The notes beneath the pieces were generated by a model. That model was not told the origin of the DNA. It was given only the letters and a program-made list of their open reading frames with translations, and made no database searches. The translations under genes and the position numbers were made by a program. From IMG/VR virus record IMGVR_UViG_2667527998_000003, positions 1-7,777 of that record: DNA of 7,777 bases. One strand, 5' to 3'. Positions 1-7,777 of the stretch are shown here, piece by piece (the first letter of the stretch is position 1; every line of letters begins with the position of its first letter). The stretch is from a virus. Lineage: Duplodnaviria; Heunggongvirae; Uroviricota; Caudoviricetes.

Positions 1-44
1 TCCTTCTGATGCCATTCTATTTCAGGAAGGAGTGTCCGTTAAAC

Positions 45-239
45 TCAGGCTACCTCACCCGTCCCGGATACCGAGAACGTTTCGTCCAGCAACTGGAGAG
101 AGTTCGACGGTGGCATCATTGCCCATGCCGGAGGCGCTGGAGGTTTCGGCTGAGGATGGCACAGGGCATTTTCCTTTGACGAGCACCCGACCACCATTAT
201 CAAGCTTGCGCCGAAGAGCATCATTTTCAGCTTTCGCAT
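45..239 (-). CDS. Rz1: Rz1-like o-spanin (outer-membrane lipoprotein), embedded in the +1 frame of Rz and extending about 10 nt past the Rz stop
   Basis: 64-aa translation [21 protein letters not shown]... has a lipoprotein signal with lipobox Cys near residue 19 and a proline-rich mature part ([11 protein letters not shown]), resembling lambda Rz1 as I remember it. ATG at 239..237 is preceded by an AAGGAG Shine-Dalgarno about 8 nt upstream. Confidence 0.85.
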
Positions 240-459
240 CAGCTAACTCCTTCGTGTATTTAGCATCGAGTGCATCAGCATCACGCTGGCGCTGCTGCAT
301 GTCAGTAATGGTTGCGTTCGCCAGCTTCAGTTCTCCGGCGTTTTTGTCGCGCTGCTCTTTGTAGGTAATGGCGTTATCACGGTAATGATTAACAGCCCAT
401 GACAGGCAGACGATGATGCAGATAACCAGAGCGGAGATAATCGCGGTGACTCTGCTCAT
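55..459 (-). CDS. Rz: Rz-like i-spanin (inner-membrane spanin subunit)
   Basis: From ATG 459..457 the protein begins [34 protein letters not shown]..., which matches the lambda Rz N-terminus as I recall it, with an N-terminal TM segment and coiled-coil middle. The start overlaps the endolysin stop (ATGA) and a GGGGGA RBS lies upstream. The track ORF start at 474 is a TTG and less likely. Confidence 0.85.
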
Positions 460-989
460 TGATCTATCCCCCAACAGGCTAATGCGCTTTCCTGGTCACG
501 ACGAATAACCTGTCCATAGCAGTTATTTGAACGTATGCGGCAATCGCGCCCAACATCTTTTATCCACCAGCGAATCGCCTCGCATGCGCCCTTACGATCA
601 CCGGCATTCAGCCGCTTATAAAACGTCGACGGGAAACACTTACCGGGGCCAATGTTATAGGGGCAAAATGACGCTATACCCGCTTTCTGGGGTTCGGTCA
701 GAGGTACTTTAATATTGCGCTCCACCCATGCCAGCGCCTTATCACGTTCAATAGCGTTAACCTGGTCACATTTTTCCTTCGACAGCTTCATTCCCGGTAT
801 GACAGGCTTACCATCCACCATTGTGGCACCACGACAGATGGTCCATATGCCAGAACCATCACGGTATGCCGTTGTGTGATTACCCTCTTTTTCGTTCAGA
901 AACTGGTCAAGTATCTGGGGAGCAGACGCGCCTGCGGCAATCAGCGCCAGAACAGCAGCCGACAGGCCGTATTTGATTTTTGCGCTCAT
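456..989 (-). CDS. R: SAR endolysin, T4-lysozyme-like (GH24) muramidase with N-terminal signal-anchor-release domain
   Basis: 177 aa with a Gly/Ala-rich weakly hydrophobic N-terminus ([18 protein letters not shown]), a catalytic E-x8-D-x5-T triad ([16 protein letters not shown]) and a C-terminal CWG motif, resembling phage-21-type R21/RrrD endolysins. It sits between the holin region and Rz. No obvious Shine-Dalgarno precedes the ATG. Confidence 0.9.
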
Positions 990-1054
990 GGATATTTATC
1001 AGGATTTATCGGCAACAAATAACGAGCCAACTTATATACGCCTTTTAAGATAAG

Positions 1055-1684
1055 TCAGCCCCGGCTGGATCCAGTCATCAGGCTCTTTCTTAAAGGGGGA
1101 GTATTGAAATCACGAAGAAGAGCCTCCCGCACCGCAGCATCCATGTCTGCACCACTGGCAAGTGCTTCAATCTCTGCCGCCACCTGCAAATACCCCATGC
1201 AACGGCCAATGCGTTTCATAACTCTGGTGTTTTCGTCTTTCAGGCATCTGATAGCGAGATTAATAATTTTCAGGCAGTGATGATGCGATGCCCGGACAGG
1301 TTTTCCGTTCTCATAAACGACGAACTCACCCTCTTCACAGGAAACCCTGAAAGGCCGATGGGGTTCCTGGTCTTTATCCGGTGCAGACGCAATAAAATCA
1401 CTTTTATGCTCTTCCTCTCCGGCACTGTTAACCGTAATGACGTACTCAGGCCGCAGGTAAGCCGCCTCTTTTTCTGACAATGCGGCCGGTAAAAACTTTT
1501 CCTGCAAAAACTTCATAAAAGTCTCGTGAGCGACTTTGTGGCAGTAATCGTAAATCGCCGCATAATGCTCATCGCGGCGTTTGTTTTCATCTTCAGAACT
1601 CACCAACGCCGACAATTTTTTATTAAGCTCAGTGATTTCATTTTCCAGGTGATTGAATCGCTGATTCATTTCTTCATGCTTCAT
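1055..1684 (-). CDS. hypothetical 209-aa soluble protein inserted between pinholin and endolysin; function unknown
   Basis: Intact ORF whose ATG (1684..1682) lies 3 nt after the holin stop and is preceded by a GGGGAGAG RBS. The N-terminus is a predicted coiled coil (MKHEEMNQRFNHLENEITELNKKLSAL); there is no signal peptide, no TM segment and no motif I recognise. Confidence 0.6.
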   Translation of the reverse strand: MKHEEMNQRFNHLENEITELNKKLSALVSSEDENKRRDEHYAAIYDYCHKVAHETFMKFLQEKFLPAALSEKEAAYLRPEYVITVNSAGEEEHKSDFIASAPDKDQEPHRPFRVSCEEGEFVVYENGKPVRASHHHCLKIINLAIRCLKDENTRVMKRIGRCMGYLQVAAEIEALASGADMDAAVREALLRDFNTPPLRKSLMTGSSRG

Positions 1685-1687
1685 TAT

Positions 1688-1873
1688 TTACTCTCCCCGT
1701 GCAGCCTTACGCTTGTCTTCTCTTATTTTGAAATACAGATTCGTCAGATAAGTCAGAAGCCCCAGAAGCAGACTTCCCAGCACACCAATCGCAGCCCACT
1801 GTGATGGCCTGACCTGATCCAACCACTGCAAAAACCAGTAGCCGGCACTGCCGGCGGAGGTGCCGTAGGCAAT
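1688..1873 (-). CDS. S: class II pinholin, phage-21 S21-like, 5'-truncated by the N-run (start codon not present)
   Basis: My own translation of the minus strand gives [61 protein letters not shown] followed by TAA at 1690..1688, near-identical to the S21 pinholin sequence as I remember it. About 7-10 N-terminal codons are lost in the N-run at 1874-1883. It is absent from the ORF track because it has no start codon. Confidence 0.8.
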
Positions 1874-1883
1874 NNNNNNNNNN
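1874..1883. other. run of 10 N (assembly gap or masked bases) interrupting the holin 5' end
   Basis: Literal n characters in the sequence; the flanking sequence on the high-coordinate side does not encode the expected holin N-terminus. Confidence 0.95.
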
Positions 1884-1945
1884 CCGCAAATAACGGATGG
1901 CGTAGTTTTACACTGAGAAATGAAAGGGATTTGAAAAGAAAAAAC

Positions 1946-2152
1946 CGCAAAAGCGGGCGAAACGATATATACAATAAGGAAAGCACTCTATCCAACAAAC
2001 CACTCACAGTTAATCGGAATAAAAGCAGAGTGCTTATGAATGATCGCCTGCCCGAAGGTTAGTATTTCTGCACAGCAATTTTGCAAAAAAAAGCGATCAT
2101 TCATAACTTAAACGTCTTTCAGTCACTCCGGGATTTCCCATCATCGCAGACT
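1946..2152. repeat. copy 1 of a ~207-bp non-coding direct repeat unit with internal inverted repeats
   Basis: 1946-2152 aligns without gaps to 2164-2370 with 5 mismatches. It contains 14-bp inverted-repeat arms TTATGAATGATCGC (2034-2047) and GCGATCATTCATAA (2093-2106) around a 45-nt loop, plus an outer 7-bp inverted repeat GCACTCT/AGAGTGC. No credible ORF. Confidence 0.8.
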
Positions 2153-2162
2153 NNNNNNNNNN
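2153..2162. other. run of 10 N exactly at the junction between the two repeat copies
   Basis: Literal n characters; the position coincides with the repeat boundary. Confidence 0.95.
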
Positions 2163-2163
2163 A

Positions 2164-2370
2164 CGCAAAAGCGGGCGAAACGATATATACAGTAAGGAAA
2201 GCACTCTATCCAACAAACCACCCACAGTTAATCGGAATAAAAGCAGAGTGCTTATGAATGATCGCACGCCCGAAGGTTAGTATTTCTGCACAGCAATTTT
2301 GCAAAAAAAGGCGATCATTCATAACTTAAACGTCTTTCAGTCACTCCGGGATTTCCCATCATCGCAGACT
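2164..2370. repeat. copy 2 of the ~207-bp non-coding direct repeat unit
   Basis: Gapless alignment to 1946-2152 at about 97.6% identity; same inverted-repeat arms at 2252-2265 and 2311-2324; ends 13 nt before the 3' end of the Gly tRNA gene. Confidence 0.8.
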
Positions 2371-2383
2371 GAAAGACTCTGAC

Positions 2384-2458
<75 letters not shown>

Positions 2459-2461
2459 ATA

Positions 2462-2537
<76 letters not shown>

Positions 2538-2539
2538 AC

Positions 2540-2616
2540 TGGACCGCCACCGGGGACTCGAACCTCGCACACTCAACTTAAAGGGTTGACGCTCTTTCCT
2601 GATGAGCTAGTGGCGG
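2540..2616 (-). tRNA. atypical tRNA-like gene; anticodon loop reads UUU but with C at position 33 and one T-stem mismatch; possibly a degenerate or variant phage tRNA
   Basis: Reverse complement CCGCCACTAGCTCATCAGGAAAGAGCGTCAACCCTTTAAGTTGAGTGTGCGAGGTTCGAGTCCCCGGTGGCGGTCCA has a perfect 7-bp acceptor stem (CCGCCAC/GTGGCGG), TTCGAGT T-loop, anticodon stem TCAAC/GTTGA, loop CCTTTAA and encoded CCA. The D-loop is non-canonical and the T-stem has an A-C mismatch. Confidence 0.5.
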
Positions 2617-2617
2617 T

Positions 2618-2693
2618 TGGTGGCCCTTGCTGGATTTGAACCAGCGACCTGGCGATTATGAGTCGCTCGCTCTCACCACTGAGCTAAAGGGCC
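2618..2693 (-). tRNA. tRNA with CAU anticodon, most similar to tRNA-Ile2 (lysidine type, ileX/ileZ-like); elongator Met not excluded
   Basis: Reverse complement GGCCCTTTAGCTCAGTGGTGAGAGCGAGCGACTCATAATCGCCAGGTCGCTGGTTCAAATCCAGCAAGGGCCACCA has perfect acceptor and T stems and anticodon loop CTCATAA. It is close to the E. coli ileX sequence as I remember it. Phage ileZ genes occupy this position downstream of Q. Confidence 0.8.
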
Positions 2694-2702
2694 GGGCGCA
2701 GG

Positions 2703-2731
2703 ATAATAACGTTACGAAATCAATGTTGCAA
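2703..2731 (-). promoter_or_regulatory. sigma70-type promoter for the tRNA cluster
   Basis: On the minus strand: -35 TTGCAA (2731..2726), 17-bp spacer, -10 TATTAT (2708..2703), then GC-rich discriminator CCTGCGCCC running into the tRNA 5' end at 2693, as is typical of stable-RNA promoters. Confidence 0.5.
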
Positions 2732-2795
2732 GCATTCAAAAATCACCCTTATCTCCTCCACCAGCGCATTCACCATGTCTATCCGAGATAAGTGG

Positions 2796-2828
2796 CACAA
2801 AAAACCCGCTTGTGGGCGGGTTTTGTTT
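2796..2828. terminator. intrinsic terminator hairpin with U-tracts on both sides; tR'-like for the minus-strand late leader
   Basis: Stem AAAACCCGC (2801-2809) pairs with GCGGGTTTT (2816-2824) around a 6-nt loop. The minus strand reads GCGGGTTTTTTGTG after the stem and the plus strand reads TTTTGTTTG. It is near-identical in architecture to the hairpin at 4398-4424. Confidence 0.65.
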
Positions 2829-2874
2829 GCTTTTGCCATCACGTACAAAATCGGCAAAGTATCAGATTTGCATG

Positions 2875-2903
2875 AATATATGCCTTTCAATCTACTTTTG
2901 CAA
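2875..2903 (-). promoter_or_regulatory. candidate late promoter (pR'-like) overlapping the 3' end of the 229-aa gene
   Basis: Minus strand: -35 TTGCAA (2903..2898), 17-bp spacer, -10 TATATT (2880..2875), with an A-tract upstream. The predicted start near 2868 gives a 45-65-nt leader ending at the 2801-2824 terminator, the classic pR'-tR' arrangement. A -10-like GATACT in the early transcribed region could be a pause element. Confidence 0.45.
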
Positions 2904-3575
2904 CACTTTGCTTTGAAAATGCCGTCTTTTTTTTGAACGTGTTCTCATTACAAACAATAAAGCCTCACTATCCAGTCGGTGAAAAATGTGTTTCATTGCA
3001 ACCCAGTGACGAGTAAATGTTTTGGACCAGTTTTTAGTTGTCACTCCCGCCAGTAATGCCAGCTCCTGGTATTCATAACCTTCCCCACCAAAAAGTTCTG
3101 CTTTTACTGCCTGCGCCGCCAGCCAGATTAATTTTTTCAGGCGTTCCTGCGTTTTCCCTGCAATTTTTCTGGTACCGGATTGAGCATTAAATTCATTCCA
3201 CGCCCACTGTGTTATCGCGATCTGATATTCCCAACAAATACTCCCGCTGTAACACCACAACAACCAGGCTTTATAGTGCTCTTCAAGAGACAGAACAGCC
3301 CGCCGCCACGATGATGTCGAAAACTCAACCGGACTGACCAGAGGAATTGACGTCCCCTTCGCCAGCGATTGCTTTCCCGGGATTGGTGGATTATCCCGCG
3401 TTATCATTTTTCCAGTCACTTCATCGCGGTACCGGATTTTTTTACGCCTGTAACGCCCTGTATCGAACATGGCATTCTCTTGCCAGGCTTCAAGCTGACC
3501 TTTTGTTGCCCCACTCAAATCAGCGGTGGCGATAATGAGCTGCTCACGCACAAACTGTAAATACTGGTTATTCAT
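2892..3575 (-). CDS. putative late-gene antitermination protein (Q-like), 227-229 aa; assignment mainly positional
   Basis: Intact ORF directly downstream of rusA (start overlaps the RusA stop; ATG at 3575..3573, alternative GTG at 3581) and directly upstream of the promoter, terminator, tRNAs and lysis genes, which is the canonical Q position. I do not recognise the sequence itself with certainty. Confidence 0.45.
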   Translation of the reverse strand: MNNQYLQFVREQLIIATADLSGATKGQLEAWQENAMFDTGRYRRKKIRYRDEVTGKMITRDNPPIPGKQSLAKGTSIPLVSPVEFSTSSWRRAVLSLEEHYKAWLLWCYSGSICWEYQIAITQWAWNEFNAQSGTRKIAGKTQERLKKLIWLAAQAVKAELFGGEGYEYQELALLAGVTTKNWSKTFTRHWVAMKHIFHRLDSEALLFVMRTRSKKRRHFQSKVLQK

Positions 3576-3937
3576 GCGCACCCCAGTTCTGTGATTTTTA
3601 TCCCCAGCCGCCCACCAGGAACGAGCTGACCGCGCACAATATTGATTTCATCAAACTGCTCGTCGTCTATAAGTAGTCCAGCATGCGTCAGCGCATCCAG
3701 CGGTGCCTTCAGGATATTGTCCAGGTCACGACGGCGCTTATCCGGTGGCTCTGCAATAATCTTTATCGCCAGCCTTCCGGACAGGTTTAATTTCAGTCGC
3801 TGCTGGCGAACAATTAGCGCCACATCACGGCGATAACGCTCACCGGCTTTTGATACAAAATATGTGCTGCCACGACGTCGCCAGTAGGTGTTCACCGTTG
3901 GCGGGTAAGGCAAAACAAATTCTATGCGTTCGGTCAT
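3572..3937 (-). CDS. rusA: RusA-family Holliday junction resolvase
   Basis: 121 aa MTERIEFVLPYPPTVNTYWRRRG...PPDKRRRDLDNILKAPLDALTHAGLLIDDEQ... aligns by eye with E. coli RusA (conserved DRRRRDLDN and DALT.AG..DD.Q blocks). Typical nin-region location. Confidence 0.85.
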   Translation of the reverse strand: MTERIEFVLPYPPTVNTYWRRRGSTYFVSKAGERYRRDVALIVRQQRLKLNLSGRLAIKIIAEPPDKRRRDLDNILKAPLDALTHAGLLIDDEQFDEINIVRGQLVPGGRLGIKITELGCA

Positions 3938-4207
3938 TTATGCTTTCCACTTCAGAACACCCGAATTTCTCGCGTGCATTAAAAAACGAATCAGCAACAA
4001 CAACTGACTACCGTGTTTTTCTTCAAAATCTTTTACCCCGGCGTGTAGTTCGTTATGGCATTTACGACACAGCGGAATAACAAACAAATCGTCAGCCTTT
4101 GTTCCCATCCCTCCCAGTCCATGACCAATGATGTGGTGCGGATCATCTGCCTGATTGCCACACGTCATGCATTTCTGCGTTTTTACCCAGCGCGTGTATA
4201 CAGGCAT
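3938..4207 (-). CDS. YbcO-like (DUF1364) zinc-binding protein with HNH-type motif arrangement, putative nuclease
   Basis: From MPVYTRW the 89-aa protein carries CMTC...DPHH...GTK...LCRKCHNELH (two CxxC pairs, HH dyad, CH-N-x2-H). Its stop abuts the rusA ATG. The true start is uncertain: the frame stays open upstream to the N-run, and a GTG about 24 codons upstream with an AGGAAG RBS is an alternative. Confidence 0.6.
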   Translation of the reverse strand: MPVYTRWVKTQKCMTCGNQADDPHHIIGHGLGGMGTKADDLFVIPLCRKCHNELHAGVKDFEEKHGSQLLLLIRFLMHARNSGVLKWKA

Positions 4208-4358
4208 CTCTTCCCGTTGTGGTTTCTGGCGCTGGAGATACTGAGCCGGAGATTCCGGATCAACGGCAATGCTGACCACCGTCTCTTCCTGTGGTGGATT
4301 CTGTTGCTGGTGGGCGTGAGGCAGCGGCGCAAGATTTTTTGTGCGCTGCTTCAGTATG

Positions 4359-4368
4359 NNNNNNNNNN
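4359..4368. other. run of 10 N between the terminator after the Q gene and the nin-type genes
   Basis: Literal n characters. Confidence 0.95.
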
Positions 4369-4397
4369 TGTTTAACGTCCTGTACCGTTTTTCAGGC

Positions 4398-4424
4398 ATA
4401 AAAAACCCGCCCGGAGGCGGGTTT
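4398..4424 (-). terminator. intrinsic terminator (tR'-like) about 90 nt downstream of the QuuD-type Q gene
   Basis: Stem AAACCCGCC (4403-4411) pairs with GGCGGGTTT (4416-4424) around loop CGGA. The minus strand reads GGCGGGTTTTTTATGCC; the plus-strand side lacks a U-tract. Confidence 0.65.
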
Positions 4425-4467
4425 AAGCTGTGTGGCGAAGCAACCACTCTTAACAGAATATCCCGTT

Positions 4468-4496
4468 TTTTACGTACGTAAAATATTTTCTAGAAA
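4468..4496. promoter_or_regulatory. pair of perfect palindromes in the interval between the Q stop and the terminator; candidate protein-binding or late-promoter region
   Basis: TTTTACGTACGTAAAA (4468-4483, 16 bp perfect) and TTTCTAGAAA (4487-4496, 10 bp perfect) lie 3 nt apart. No convincing -35/-10 pair could be assigned by eye. Confidence 0.35.
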
Positions 4497-4510
4497 GTCG
4501 CCCCTTACCA

Positions 4511-4891
4511 TCAGGGATGTTCAATATATTTGTCCATTTCTAACCGGACACCCAACATCATCAACATTCCTTCCACCACCCCCTCGGCTTTTTGTAGCTT
4601 CTTTCCTATATAACCATCTGAGCATCCATGCTTCCGCGCCAGCGTCATGAATGTCATCCCAAACACGTAGTAGTCAACCAGCAAGTCATGTAGATCGTTG
4701 TTGTTCCGGTTAAGGCGGGCCATACACCCACATATAACCATCGCGTCATCGTCACAGCATTGCGGGCGGGATTTTACTTTTGAAGGGATTAATCCCTTAA
4801 AACCGGCAGCAATGGACGACCAGGTCACATCCTCATGATTATTAGCCACCCACGCGCCCCAGCGCTCAAGAACCTGCTGAATATCACGCAT
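4511..4891 (-). CDS. Q: antitermination protein Q, QuuD/phage-21 type (about 126 aa)
   Basis: From ATG 4891..4889 the protein [60 protein letters not shown]... is strongly similar to DLP12 QuuD as I recall it. It sits immediately after ninH with an 8-nt overlap. The track ORF start at 4927 is a TTG inside ninH. Confidence 0.8.
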
Positions 4892-5084
4892 CACTGTCTT
4901 TACCCCTGTCCCATCCACGATGAACAATCAGAACACCATCAACAATGGCGTGCCCTTTGCCCTCTTTATCTTCAGCATATTTTCTTACCGTGGCGCGATT
5001 ACAGTTCAGCATTCGTGAAACTTCGGTCATATTACCTCGTGTCTGGATAAGCAGTTCCGGTATCGTTTGAATTTTGACGCTCAT
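4884..5084 (-). CDS. ninH: NinH-like small DNA-binding protein
   Basis: 66 aa [58 protein letters not shown]... aligns along its length with lambda NinH from memory. ATG at 5084..5082 is preceded by a GGAGAG RBS. Confidence 0.85.
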
Positions 5085-5179
5085 CAAATACTCTCCGGTT
5101 CGGTGATTTTTATCCCGGGCTTTCCACCAGGGACATAATGATCGCGCACAAGCCAGGGCAAAACAAACTCATGGCGCAT
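5084..5179 (-). pseudogene. rusA remnant: 31-codon in-frame fusion of RusA N- and C-terminal segments (internal deletion of roughly 90 codons)
   Basis: My translation of the minus strand is MRHEFVLPWLVRDHYVPGGKPGIKITEPESI followed by TGA. EFVLP matches the N-terminus and VPGGKPGIKITE the C-terminus of the intact RusA at 3572-3937 (RIEFVLPYPP... and ...LVPGGRLGIKITELGCA). The DNA at 5101-5150 is visibly similar to 3590-3640. Start and stop overlap the neighbouring genes. Confidence 0.5.
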
Positions 5180-5436
5180 CAGCGCAGCGCCTCCTGCACC
5201 AGTTTTTCAAACTTTCCGACTCTGGTTTCCAGCTCTGCCACACAGTCCACCAGCTCATCTACTGCTTTCTGTGCGCGATGCTTCGCCTGCATCAGTTCCC
5301 GAAGCGCGGGTACCATATCTTTACGGATAGCATCTTTTGTTATGCCCGTTTTTTCGAGTTGTTCAGCATGACGCAGCATTTCCTGCGCGTGTTTACGCAA
5401 TTGTTCAGGGGTAAAAGTCATTGTCTGGTTGTTCAA
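5179..5436 (-). CDS. hypothetical 80-85-aa helical protein, function unknown
   Basis: ORF begins at the helicase stop (TTG overlapping TGA at 5436; first ATG at 5421) and ends in an overlap with the rusA remnant start. Charged, helix-prone sequence with no motif I recognise. Confidence 0.5.
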   Translation of the reverse strand: MNNQTMTFTPEQLRKHAQEMLRHAEQLEKTGITKDAIRKDMVPALRELMQAKHRAQKAVDELVDCVAELETRVGKFEKLVQEALR

Positions 5437-6824
5437 AAGAAACGCTCCATCTTACTGCTGTCAGTTCGTTTATTACTGTATCTGCGCGGATTGCCGGGCT
5501 TCATGGGAGTGGAAAGCACCCGTGCACTTTCCTGGTCCACAGGCAGAAAATGTCCGTTATAAAAACGCCGGTAAATCGTTCCCAGAGAACCGTTACGTTG
5601 TTTCGTGATATTGATTTCTGCGATGCCCCTGGCCTGCGTATCCGGGTTGTACACTTCATCCCTGTAAAGCATCAGAATGATGTCTGCATCCGCCTCTATT
5701 TCTCCGGAATTTTTCAGGTCTGAGTTCATGGGACGTTTATTGGGTCTGGACTCCACACCGCGGGAGAGCTGGCTCAGCGCAATCAACGGAAAACCACCGG
5801 ATTTTGCCAGGCCTTTAAGCCCCTTTGAGATTTCACCCACGGCAAGGTCATGACGCCCCGTGGTTCGGGTTTTTATCAGCCCGAGATAATCAACCACCAC
5901 CAGCGCCGTTTCCGGATATTTAATCAGGTGGTGTTTCGTTGTTGCGCATATCTCATCAATGGCCAGGTTCGCCTGGTCCACCATCCAGATATTGCGCCCG
6001 GTCATCCGCCCCACCCCTTGTGAGAAACGCGTCCAGTCTTCATCTTCAAAGTGAGCCACAGATTTCAGGCGTGATACTGGCATCCCTCCAGCCGCAGACA
6101 CCATACGTTCACCAATCTGGATGTTCGCCATCTCCATGGTGAACAGAAGCACACCATGCCCCTGCTCAGTCACCTTGTCGATGATGTCCAGCGCAAGTTC
6201 GGTTTTCCCCATCGAAGGACGGGCGGCAATGAATACCAGGTCTCCGGGCTCCATACCGCCTGTTTTTGCGTCCAGTTCATCAATACCGGTCATCAACGTC
6301 CTGGATTTCTCCAGCCCCTGATTCCGGCATTCAACACGCTCAACCACTTCCGGAAGCACATCATCAATATGTACCGGCTGAATGACGCCCTTTCCTGTCG
6401 ACAGTGTGACCATCATGTTCTGCGCATCCTTCAGGGCATCTTCAGCTGCTTCACAGGTATGCGCATCACGTAATTTCTGCAGCGCCTCATTCAGTGTTTT
6501 TTCTGCATCGCGCAGTGCGGCATTGCGCCGCAACGCTGCAACATAGTGCTCCAGTGAAGACTTCACCCAGGTTTTACGCCCGGTATCAGTAATCACCGGG
6601 GCAAGTTCCGGCATCTCATTACACAACAGCACGGGGTCAATCACTCCTGAAACACGGGCCTGTCTGCAGATGCCTGTATAGATATCCTGATACGCTCGTA
6701 CAGAAAAAACGTCCGCTGGCAGTGTGGCCAGAATATCCATCACTTCAGGATCTGCTCCGCGCAGAAAGAACGCGCCGATGACAGCGCCTTCAAGGTCATC
6801 GTTACGCCATACTGGAGTTGTCAT
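5433..6824 (-). CDS. DnaB-family replicative DNA helicase (phage-encoded)
   Basis: 463 aa with Walker A AARPSMGKTELAL, Walker B LVVVDYLGLI and the conserved block ALSQLSRGVESRPNKRPMNSDLKNSGEIEADADIILMLYRDEVY, which parallels E. coli DnaB. The ATG overlaps the upstream gene stop (ATGA). Confidence 0.9.
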   Translation of the reverse strand: MTTPVWRNDDLEGAVIGAFFLRGADPEVMDILATLPADVFSVRAYQDIYTGICRQARVSGVIDPVLLCNEMPELAPVITDTGRKTWVKSSLEHYVAALRRNAALRDAEKTLNEALQKLRDAHTCEAAEDALKDAQNMMVTLSTGKGVIQPVHIDDVLPEVVERVECRNQGLEKSRTLMTGIDELDAKTGGMEPGDLVFIAARPSMGKTELALDIIDKVTEQGHGVLLFTMEMANIQIGERMVSAAGGMPVSRLKSVAHFEDEDWTRFSQGVGRMTGRNIWMVDQANLAIDEICATTKHHLIKYPETALVVVDYLGLIKTRTTGRHDLAVGEISKGLKGLAKSGGFPLIALSQLSRGVESRPNKRPMNSDLKNSGEIEADADIILMLYRDEVYNPDTQARGIAEINITKQRNGSLGTIYRRFYNGHFLPVDQESARVLSTPMKPGNPRRYSNKRTDSSKMERFF

Positions 6825-7699
6825 GCAGCCACACCTCTGATACGAGAACGGTAACTGGGCCAGTTAAACGACAACCAGTTGCGTCCCCCGTCTGTGATCC
6901 TGTCGGCAATTCGGGGACTGATGAACGCCCACAACTCTTCCGGTGAGAGGTTACTGATCAGAATGGTGGGCAAGATACTTTCGTACCTGGCGTTGATAAT
7001 TTCCTGCAAAATAGCCATTTCAGCCGCGCTGCCAAACTGAACGCCAACTTCGTCGATGATCAGCAAATCCATTGACGCATAACGCTCAATAACTTCATCC
7101 GCTGTTTTTTCGCTGTCATTCCGCCAGCAATTTTTCACAGCACGGGTAAGGCGCATCACGTCGGTGATCTCCACACTGGCCAGATAGTTACGGATGATGT
7201 GTTTTGCCATAGCCACAGCCAGATGATTTTTTCCGGTACCACAACTGCCGGTCATAACAAGACTGGTACCGTTCTCCAGCATATCTGGCCAGTTCTCCGC
7301 ATAGCGGCGACAGGCCGCAAGATTTCTGGCTGCGCCAGGATTAACCTCCAGATAATTATCAAACTCGCAGTCCCGAAAACGCAGGGCAATTCCGGCGTTA
7401 TCAGTCAGCTCTTCCGCCTTGATGGACGACAGCTCCATGGTCAAATCGTTGGCCTCAGCGATTAAGCAGTCAGGGCAGCATGAAATTTCTTCTCTGTCCT
7501 CGCCATTACGATCGCTCCACACCAGTATATGCGTGTGATATTCGCCATGTTTTTCGCAATATCCGCGACCTTCACGCATCAGGCAGGAACGATAAGGCCA
7601 TGGCTTTTCGCCCTTCTGAGCAAATGCAATCTCTGCCCGTAACTCATCCATTCGCGCCTGTAGTCTTTTTTGTTGTTCACGCAGGTTAAACGTCATCAT
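6821..7699 (-). CDS. DnaC-like helicase loader (AAA+ ATPase) with an N-terminal Cys/His-rich extension
   Basis: Walker A GSCGTGKNHLAVA (the GTGKNHLA signature of DnaC), Walker B DLLIIDEVG and C-terminal WLSFNWPSYRSRIRG (compare DnaC WVIFNWDSYRSRVTG). The N-terminal part has C-x3-H-x3-H-x-H and CC-x2-C. Start taken as ATG 7699..7697 with a GAGGTGA RBS; the frame also remains open upstream to the window edge. Confidence 0.85.
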   Translation of the reverse strand: MMTFNLREQQKRLQARMDELRAEIAFAQKGEKPWPYRSCLMREGRGYCEKHGEYHTHILVWSDRNGEDREEISCCPDCLIAEANDLTMELSSIKAEELTDNAGIALRFRDCEFDNYLEVNPGAARNLAACRRYAENWPDMLENGTSLVMTGSCGTGKNHLAVAMAKHIIRNYLASVEITDVMRLTRAVKNCWRNDSEKTADEVIERYASMDLLIIDEVGVQFGSAAEMAILQEIINARYESILPTILISNLSPEELWAFISPRIADRITDGGRNWLSFNWPSYRSRIRGVAA

Positions 7700-7777
7700 C
7701 GCTGTCACCTCAGAATGTCTGAAGTGGCACACTGAATTTGGCCACCTGAACAGAGGTGATATGCTCACCTCAGAACA

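Follow-up and report, generated by a model that had tools for sequence, protein, structure and literature searches.

A probable structured RNA gene in the 3' trailer of a prophage tRNA operon, duplicated in one scaffold by mis-assembly

The 7,777-nt stretch of Caudoviricetes DNA analysed here (positions 1 to 7,777 of IMG/VR record IMGVR_UViG_2667527998_000003; hereafter, the window) carries, between a tRNA cluster and a holin gene, a unit that is a conserved, strongly folded RNA element. It is probably a gene, present once per locus, for a structured non-coding RNA some 225 nt long that makes up the 3' trailer of the tRNA operon. Its tandem duplication in the window is a scaffolding artefact, and the two copies are alleles of two lambdoid prophages of one genome. 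An earlier, sequence-only reading had proposed a structured RNA or protein-binding element rather than spacer DNA; covariation, a strand bias of G-U pairs and conservation bear out the RNA half of that proposal and disfavour a protein-binding DNA site.

Read on the minus strand, the window spans the replication-to-lysis part of lambdoid prophage DNA (Table 1). The promoter of the tRNA operon ends about 9 nt ahead of the first tRNA. RefSeq annotators call this first tRNA (CAU) Ile. The late promoter pR' and the terminator tR' together specify a short isrK/isrJ-like transcript; the isrK model scored 22.5 bits on this region (E = 0.024), which is below the gathering score of the family. Q-modified RNA polymerase coming from pR' would traverse the tRNAs and the unit and then enter the lysis genes.

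Table 1 Features of the window in minus-strand order, with the basis of each assignment where given.
Feature	Position	Strand	Basis or remark
DnaC-like and DnaB-like genes, then NinH		minus	
Q antiterminator, family PF06530	4511-4927	minus	terminator next
N-run	4359-4368		joins prophage-2 fragment to prophage-1 DNA; identity and two Q families
C-terminal part of DUF968 gene, then RusA			past the N-run that follows the PF06530 Q
Second Q, different family, PF06323	2892-3581	minus	
Late promoter pR', TTGCAA-17-TATATT	2903-2875	minus	promoter scan; downstream of Q
Terminator tR'	2830-2795	minus	inverted-repeat listing
Sigma-70 promoter of tRNA operon, TTGCAA-17 nt-TATTAT with GC-rich discriminator	2731-2703	minus	promoter scan
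tRNA cluster Met/Ile2(CAU)-Lys(UUU)-Thr(UGU)-Gly(UCC)	2693-2384	minus	ARAGORN and Rfam tRNA matches
Copy B of unit, prophage-1 allele	2163-2383	minus	sequence, fold, variable sites; directly 3' of tRNA-Gly
Copy B layout: 6-nt linker, HP1, HP2, HP3, spacer	HP1 2377-2332; HP2 2324-2252; HP3 2251-2201	minus	
Copy B terminator, first half only	2177-2163	minus	rest lost at N-run
N-run, 10-N placeholder between overlapping assembly pieces	2153-2162		junction making the apparent duplication
Scaffold piece with copy A, 269 nt, prophage-2 allele	1884-2152	minus	100% match to prophage 2
Copy A hairpins: truncated HP1, HP2, HP3	HP1 2152-2114 only; HP2 2106-2034; HP3 2033-1983	minus	
Copy A weak terminator, stem CCGC/GCGG and U-tract	1959-1934	minus	
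Copy A tail, 50 nt	1933-1884	minus	continues to the holin ribosome-binding site in complete genomes
N-run, placeholder for ~40 nt	1874-1883		alignment to L002, L001 and prophage 1/2 sequences
Class II (S21-type) holin, 5' end lost in gap	1688-1873	minus	first gene 3' of unit
209-aa ORF without Pfam match, lysozyme, Rz			beyond holin

Alignment of the two copies confirmed gapless 207-nt stretches at 1946-2152 and 2164-2370 with 5 mismatches, and each copy holds perfect inverted arms of 14 nt with 45 nt between them (2034-2047/2093-2106 and 2252-2265/2311-2324). The inverted repeats had been described as nested; the fold gave instead three hairpins side by side on the minus strand (HP1, HP2 and HP3), followed in the single-copy sequence by a weak terminator. 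The T-rich tract noted beside the repeats does exist and is the tail of this weak intrinsic terminator. The minimum free energy was -92.5 kcal/mol compared with -70.0 ± 4.7 in shuffled sequences (z = -4.8), and 0 of 200 shuffles were as stable. HP1 extends 7 nt past the repeat, and thus copy A is without most of the HP1 5' arm. A covariance model (R1) built from 50 sequences matched copy B with 149 bits at 2189-2330 and copy A with 148.7 bits at 1971-2112, both on the minus strand.

RNAalifold recovered HP2 and HP3 from 47 representatives. With HP1 added, the structure has 53 pairs in 7 helices, and 95.0% of pairs are kept across the 47 sequences versus 90.2% in column shuffles. The observed pairing/covariation score was reached by none of 500 column shuffles, and pairing fell to 36-48% when partners were slid by 1-3 columns. 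A total of 18 pairs changed on both sides (145 cells versus 58.5 expected), although most of these double changes split two clades and the independent events are therefore few. All five differences between copies A and B sit at unpaired positions. As many as 221 pair cells are G-U, so that 97.8% of cells are paired on the strand of the tRNAs and late transcript versus 86.3% on the opposite strand; since every G-U would read as a C-A mismatch in the opposite sense, the tRNA-sense strand is the RNA strand. The best-conserved residues are unpaired or apical, i.e., UUUUGCAAAAUUGCUGU in HP2 and GGU..UGUU in HP3; part of this loop invariance stems from the patterns with which the loci were collected, and it also holds in loci gathered by the other pattern.

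The unit was rightly said to be without coding capacity, as no ORF inside it is conserved among relatives. The only ORFs present (43-84 codons) cross N-runs or start in the lineage-specific terminator, substitutions follow base-pairing and not codon patterns, and the 76%-identical copy in phage HK639 has indels and a different 3' part. Folding and an Rfam search had been suggested as checks: the fold is well beyond chance, and there was no Rfam match (Rfam 15, gathering thresholds) inside 1884-2383. At E ≤ 10 the sole Rfam match to the unit was to a snoRNA model at chance level (E = 6.9), and the HK639 homologue had only terminator-driven matches of 21-26 bits, far under the gathering scores.

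To profile the distribution of the unit, we searched 5,426 complete E. coli genomes, 526-536 of which (~10%) contain it, always on the chromosome and at 1-3 places each. A pattern scan with one genome per species detected it in E. coli, Shigella flexneri, Enterobacter hormaechei, Citrobacter sedlakii, Yokenella regensburgei and Phytobacter ursingii, and the handful of matches outside Enterobacteriaceae were all due to chance. The comparison with other Enterobacteriaceae proposed earlier has thus shown conservation in five genera besides Escherichia. The homologue in phage HK639 is preceded by a 3' fragment of tRNA-Gly and followed by a strong terminator annotated by the depositors. The unit itself is unannotated in HK639, where the record has only terminators in this region, and in the other RefSeq and phage records inspected. 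A conserved structured RNA found in about one in ten complete E. coli genomes is absent from Rfam and from these annotations. The unit, which is well supported by comparison, may be regarded as a credible new family within a known general class of RNAs (prophage small RNA or tRNA-operon trailer RNA).

The genomic context of the unit was profiled in IMG/VR, where 157 loci were fetched by two conserved patterns and 131 of them carry the core. HP1 begins 6 nt after the end of tRNA-Gly in the window; it is present in 117 of the 131 loci, at 76-78 nt from the last tRNA in most. Where HP1 is present, only a few nucleotides separate the unit from the tRNA cluster ahead of it, which almost always ends in tRNA-Gly(UCC), the commonest being Met-Lys-Thr-Gly (n = 61). 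In a few loci HP2 directly follows tRNA-Gly, and a few have no tRNA upstream of the unit. A promoter of the form TTGCAN-17-TAT(T/C)AT, followed by a GC-rich discriminator, is conserved with the same layout and spacing across 50 otherwise different upstream contexts, indicating that the tRNAs and the unit are an autonomous transcription unit within the late operon.

At the other end, a canonical terminator (GC-rich stem of at least 5 bp, then a U-tract) follows HP3 in 81 of 127 loci, with two in tandem in 10 of these. Its position is fixed (stem end ~145 nt from the HP2 anchor), and its sequences are unrelated between lineages. The remaining 46 loci, both window alleles among them, fail the 5-bp test. 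The stem has eroded to 3-4 bp (GCGGGC to GCGGTT to GCGTTT) in the E. coli/Shigella lineage to which the window belongs: copy A keeps a 4-bp stem with U6CU4, and the allele of copy B, cut by the gap in the window, has GCG/CGC in full. Neither was called by the terminator scan, and relatives have GCCCGC/GCGGGC or unrelated strong stems. Lying between an intrinsic terminator and the last tRNA of an operon that has its own promoter, the unit has the position of a 3'ETS-type tRNA-operon trailer.

The next gene downstream, at a distance of 160-970 nt, encodes an S21-type holin in 77 of 111 loci; elsewhere it encodes a holin of another family. In HK639, the holin is separated from the unit by a bona fide STnc100 gene (52.6 bits; gathering score 47) and by a further segment that ends in a terminator. 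Given that this STnc100 gene follows the unit and its terminator, and that the downstream holin family varies between loci, we conclude that the unit and terminator are a self-contained RNA cassette.

The product is most likely a stable RNA of ~225 nt released from the 3' trailer of the tRNA operon. Transcription would start at the sigma-70 promoter and pass through tRNA-Ile2/Met, -Lys, -Thr and -Gly, with the RNA beginning six nt past the CCA of tRNA-Gly and ending at the intrinsic terminator ~70 nt before the holin start. Q-modified polymerase from pR' would be a second source of this same RNA during lytic growth. We infer that the 5' end most likely arises by processing during 3' maturation of tRNA-Gly and the 3' end by termination, which would yield a free and very stable RNA of three hairpins. 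The terminator of the unit would keep the constitutive tRNA promoter off the lysis genes. The invariant unpaired segments, AAAUUGCUG in HP2 and GUGGGU and GGUUUGUUGG in HP3, are the likely contacts for partner RNAs or proteins.

A further step, which we put forward tentatively and regard as possible rather than probable, is that the unit represents an undescribed phage RNA family that travels with tRNA clusters of variable anticodons and acts in trans via its invariant loops. Such an RNA could be a sponge for a host small RNA, or it could serve as a decoy for, or inhibit, a host factor by which tRNAs are attacked or processed; in this second role, it would make the tRNA cluster and the RNA a single counter-defence or translation-reprogramming module. 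If it acted on host RNAs or tRNA-directed defences, prophage tRNA clusters would be linked to regulation, beyond codon supply.

The best-surviving alternative, which we consider unlikely, is a cis role, in which the unit forms a structured 5' leader on the lysis mRNA once the tRNAs are excised from the late transcript. It would then shield the holin-lysozyme message from 5'-end-dependent decay by RNase E, or tune holin translation and the timing of lysis. The unit is indeed immediately upstream of the holin in the majority of loci (77/111), HP1 at 6 nt from the tRNA end would suit the blocking of a 5'-monophosphate sensor, and the intervening terminator is weak in the window lineage, where the RNA may therefore mostly remain joined to the lysis mRNA. 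However, the family at large has a canonical terminator, sometimes two in tandem, before the next gene; HK639 and others have 400-900 nt with other small RNA cassettes between the unit and the holin; and the linkage to tRNA-Gly is kept across changes of the holin family downstream. The invariant loop sequences would also be left unexplained by a hairpin with a protective function alone.

Less probable still is that the region serves to insulate the lysis genes from the tRNA promoter, as a terminator with a neutral, hairpin-rich spacer whose RNA product has no function. The conserved upstream promoter implies a need for insulation, and the terminator is kept at its position despite several replacements of its sequence. 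Yet this terminator has itself decayed in many E. coli copies, HP1-HP3 have no U-tracts and are not terminators, and a spacer would have no need of stems that covary and loops that are invariant across six genera. We give very little weight to a DNA site, i.e., an operator or recombination site for a phage or host protein: the 14-nt arms are perfect and the TTGCAA motif is its own reverse complement, but the stems tolerate G-U and not C-A (the strand bias above), the arms change by compensatory substitution where a protein site would keep its sequence, and the most conserved part is the loops of at least 45 nt between the arms. The trailer RNA released from the tRNA operon is the reading that we retain.

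Several known RNAs resemble the unit in part. RtT RNA (RF00391) is a structured RNA of ~170 nt whose function is unclear and whose source is the distal part of the tyrT operon of E. coli, from which it is processed. It shares with the unit an origin at the distal end of a tRNA operon, but it comes from genuine tandem 178-bp repeats, each with a tRNA 3' end, whereas the repeat of the unit is an artefact. T4 RNAC and RNAD (species 1 and 2 RNAs) belong to the tRNA cluster of that phage, with which they are encoded and processed. They are stable small RNAs, as the product of the unit would be; T4 is a virulent myovirus and not a lambdoid prophage, and the sizes differ. With these and RtT RNA, the nearest functional analogues include 3'ETS-leuZ, the 3' external-transcribed-spacer RNA of the glyW-cysT-leuZ tRNA operon. 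Like it, the unit lies between the last tRNA of an operon and an intrinsic terminator, would be a by-product of tRNA 3' processing and is a candidate trans-acting or sponge RNA; unlike it, the unit is ~225 rather than ~50 nt long, highly structured and prophage-borne, and there is no sequence similarity. The term 3'ETS-leuZ appears in PMC6191717 and in the EPEC tables of PMC8550237, and RNAC and RNAD are described as RNAs "of yet unknown functions" (PMC9697503).

The niche between Q and the holin is also occupied by Pas RNAs (10.64898/2026.05.13.724894; PMC8550237), and the convergent EcOnc small RNAs lie at the moron site (PMC4104026). PasA, PasC, PasD/STnc100, EcOnc and the StxS/IsrK-type pR' transcripts all share this Q-to-holin "moron" niche with the unit. 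They are likewise terminator-ended cassettes, and HK639 has the unit and STnc100 in series. However, PasA and EcOnc are convergent to pR', whereas the unit is co-oriented and tied to the tRNA cluster, and it is 2-3 times longer. The unit thus adds a tRNA-linked, co-oriented member to the small RNAs between the phage antiterminator Q and the lysis genes. The put RNAs of HK022 and HK639 consist of two adjacent long stem-loops with one unpaired base between them (PMC9378689). They resemble the unit in having adjacent long stem-loops upstream of terminators, and HK639 carries both, but put RNAs are ~70 nt long and lie just downstream of pL or pR. A put-like read-through at the unit would let the constitutive tRNA promoter express the lysis genes, which counts as a further difference.

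Known candidates were also searched for directly. The RF00391 model gave no match at E ≤ 10. The probe sequences of PasA, B, C and D (PMC8550237 table S6) were absent from the unit with up to 7 substitutions allowed; the sole match, with 7 substitutions, lies outside the unit at 7314-7338 and is due to chance. Neither the STnc100/AgvB nor the isrK model matched the unit, and STnc100 matches a different segment of HK639. R1 found nothing at the putL-like RNA of HK639 (L174, 4188-4313; filters off, E ≤ 10), and the position of the unit, in the late region after a tRNA cluster, is not the put-type one just downstream of an early promoter. MAFFT aligned HP1 with tRNA-Gly, but 461 of 2000 shuffles (23%) scored as well, so HP1 was rejected as a degenerate tRNA-Gly fragment. 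An internal promoter found no support: no conserved -10 accompanies the TTGCAA of the HP2 loop on either strand, the promoter scan detected none, and a start there would remove the covarying 5' arm of HP2. Against a riboswitch or attenuator, the spacer and terminator after HP3 are replaced in their entirety from lineage to lineage, and no alternative pairing is conserved. A role as a CsrA sponge is unlikely, with three GGA motifs in ~230 nt matching the chance expectation and a terminator-driven rsmX match of 21.7 bits. No target in cis was found, the rest of the window being free of sequences complementary to the conserved loops, and a full-text search of the searchable literature with six conserved sequence strings of the unit matched only an unrelated primer.

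To determine how often the unit occurs per locus, we compared the window with its relatives. The tRNA-Gly-to-holin spacer is 292 nt long with one copy in the complete genomes inspected, including, at the inspected locus, two genomes that have the unit at 2-3 places. A pattern search revealed a second copy of the core in 0 of the 131 IMG/VR loci, and adjacent copies in ungapped sequence were found in none of the loci or genomes inspected. In 902 kb of sequence, R1 matched 99 of 100 viral contigs once each and the remaining contig not at all; in the window it has exactly two matches. A longer array or true tandem duplication, which the sequence-only reading had thought possible, was seen in no related locus examined.

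The other explanation offered at the time, that each copy belongs to a different prophage, proved correct. Separate prophages ~1.24-1.29 Mb apart carry the two alleles in both S. flexneri SFBU1023 and E. coli ECMA0423 (prophage 1, loci L162/L160; prophage 2, L166 in S. flexneri SFBU1023 and L161 in E. coli ECMA0423). The scaffold piece with copy A is 100% identical over 269 nt to prophage 2 of both genomes, and at each of the five variable sites copy B has the base of prophage 1. Prophage 1 is also the source of pieces 1-1873 (99.3% identity) and 4369-7777 (100% identity, to L162). The piece between them that holds copy B (2163-4358) is 99.6% identical to prophage 2 (L161); it has prophage-1 bases up to 2310 and prophage-2 bases at ~25 sites from 2518 on, the switch lying inside a stretch that is identical in both prophages. 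The prophage-1 tRNA cluster, Met-Arg(UCU)-Thr-Gly, is located ~57 nt past the end of the 4369-7777 piece and is absent from the window.

The N-runs agree with this picture. N-runs had been reported at both junctions of the repeat; they are present there, each of ten Ns, and there is a third at 4359-4368. The pieces flanking the run that separates the copies overlap by 207 nt with 5 mismatches, where single-copy references are continuous. At the third run, the prophage-2 side holds the DUF968 C-terminus, RusA and the PF06323 Q, and the prophage-1 side holds the PF06530 Q, NinH and the DnaB-like and DnaC-like genes; the serial arrangement of two Q genes from different families fits a mosaic of two prophages, as does the truncated DUF968. 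A genuine tandem duplication or longer array in the source strain deserves hardly any credence: the deposited scaffold does show the duplicate, with N-runs as its junctions, but no tandem copy occurs in the complete genomes inspected or in the 131 and 99 related loci, each copy is the allele of another prophage, and the two prophages are demonstrably mixed in the scaffold. The duplicate flanked by N-runs is accordingly due no biological reading and marks a mis-scaffolded mosaic of two prophages, which makes the gene order of the whole window unreliable, including the two Q genes in series, the truncated DUF968 and the missing second tRNA cluster. When the complete E. coli genome CP048934 and phage vB_EcoS-689R5 are aligned to the window, each shows a single copy, and the second copy and its N-run show up as an insertion. 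At 1874-1883, the missing sequence comprises the holin Shine-Dalgarno and the dual start ATGAAATCCATGG; as ten Ns replace ~40 nt there, the 10-N runs are placeholders and not measured gaps.

The promoter of the prophage tRNA cluster consists of −35 and −10 hexamers and a GC-rich discriminator. The promoter, together with the discriminator, was kept across 50 differing upstream contexts, and this conservation in sequence implies that the prophage tRNAs and the trailer RNA would be expressed without need of the late promoter pR' and the antiterminator Q. The short transcript from pR' to its terminator tR' was likened to StxS, as a by-product RNA of the same kind. Its resemblance to the Salmonella sRNAs isrK and isrJ was weak in the window (22.5-23 bits), and the counterpart in phage HK639 scored 34.6 bits (gathering score 37).

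Features of the window and of related loci (L003, phage HK639; L162, prophage 1)
Feature	Position	Strand
209-aa ORF between holin and lysozyme	window 1055-1684	minus
Terminator region 3' of the unit, copy A	window 1934-1959
Terminator region 3' of the unit, copy B	window 2163-2177
Second tRNA of the cluster, Lys(UUU)	window 2540-2616
Second tRNA of the cluster in prophage 1, Arg(UCU)	L162 5132-5208
tRNA-operon promoter, TTGCAA-17-TATTAT plus GC-rich discriminator	window 2703-2731	minus
Short pR'-to-tR' transcript	window 2795-2903	minus
HK639 counterpart of the short transcript	L003 2750-2822
Q antiterminator gene, PF06323	window 2892-3581	minus
Q antiterminator gene, PF06530	window 4511-4927	minus
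HK639 segments in the Q-to-holin spacer	L003 3249-3454 and 3460-3633

The two Q genes belong to different Pfam families, each is followed by a terminator, and they stand in series because the scaffold combines two prophages; the gene order of the window across its N-runs is therefore unreliable. A direct repeat of 57 nt (77% identity) was detected at 3583-3639 and 5095-5151. One copy corresponds to the junction of the RusA 3' end and the Q start in prophage 2 and the other lies directly upstream of ninH in prophage 1, and the repeat looks like a rusA 3'-end relic from modular recombination. The ORF between holin and lysozyme had no match in Pfam, and relatives carry a YdfR-family gene at its position.

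The identity of the second tRNA varied among otherwise similar clusters, including those of the window, prophage 1 and many IMG/VR loci. Prophage 2 shares the lysine tRNA of the window. In further loci the place was taken by a tRNA for Phe, Leu or Asn, by one with a UUA suppressor-like anticodon, or by one whose anticodon loop is irregular. This position is a possible hotspot for switching of the anticodon.

Downstream of the unit (the non-coding RNA element between tRNA-Gly and holin), the terminator stem showed stepwise erosion via G-to-T changes that lengthened the T-run: relatives have GCGGGC, copy A has GCGGTT and the full allele of copy B has GCGTTT. The contig break in copy B coincides exactly with this T homopolymer.

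In HK639, the 950-nt spacer from Q to holin is a series of RNA cassettes, each ended by a terminator, in the order unit, STnc100 (above its Rfam gathering score) and a third, unassigned segment with a strong terminator at its end. Within the unit, the third hairpin (HP3) was swapped for unrelated sequence in six related loci (L005, L006, L007, L014, L050 and L103), with covariance-model scores of ~92 bits versus the usual ~150. Given that HP1 and HP2 were retained in these loci, the hairpins behave as separable modules.
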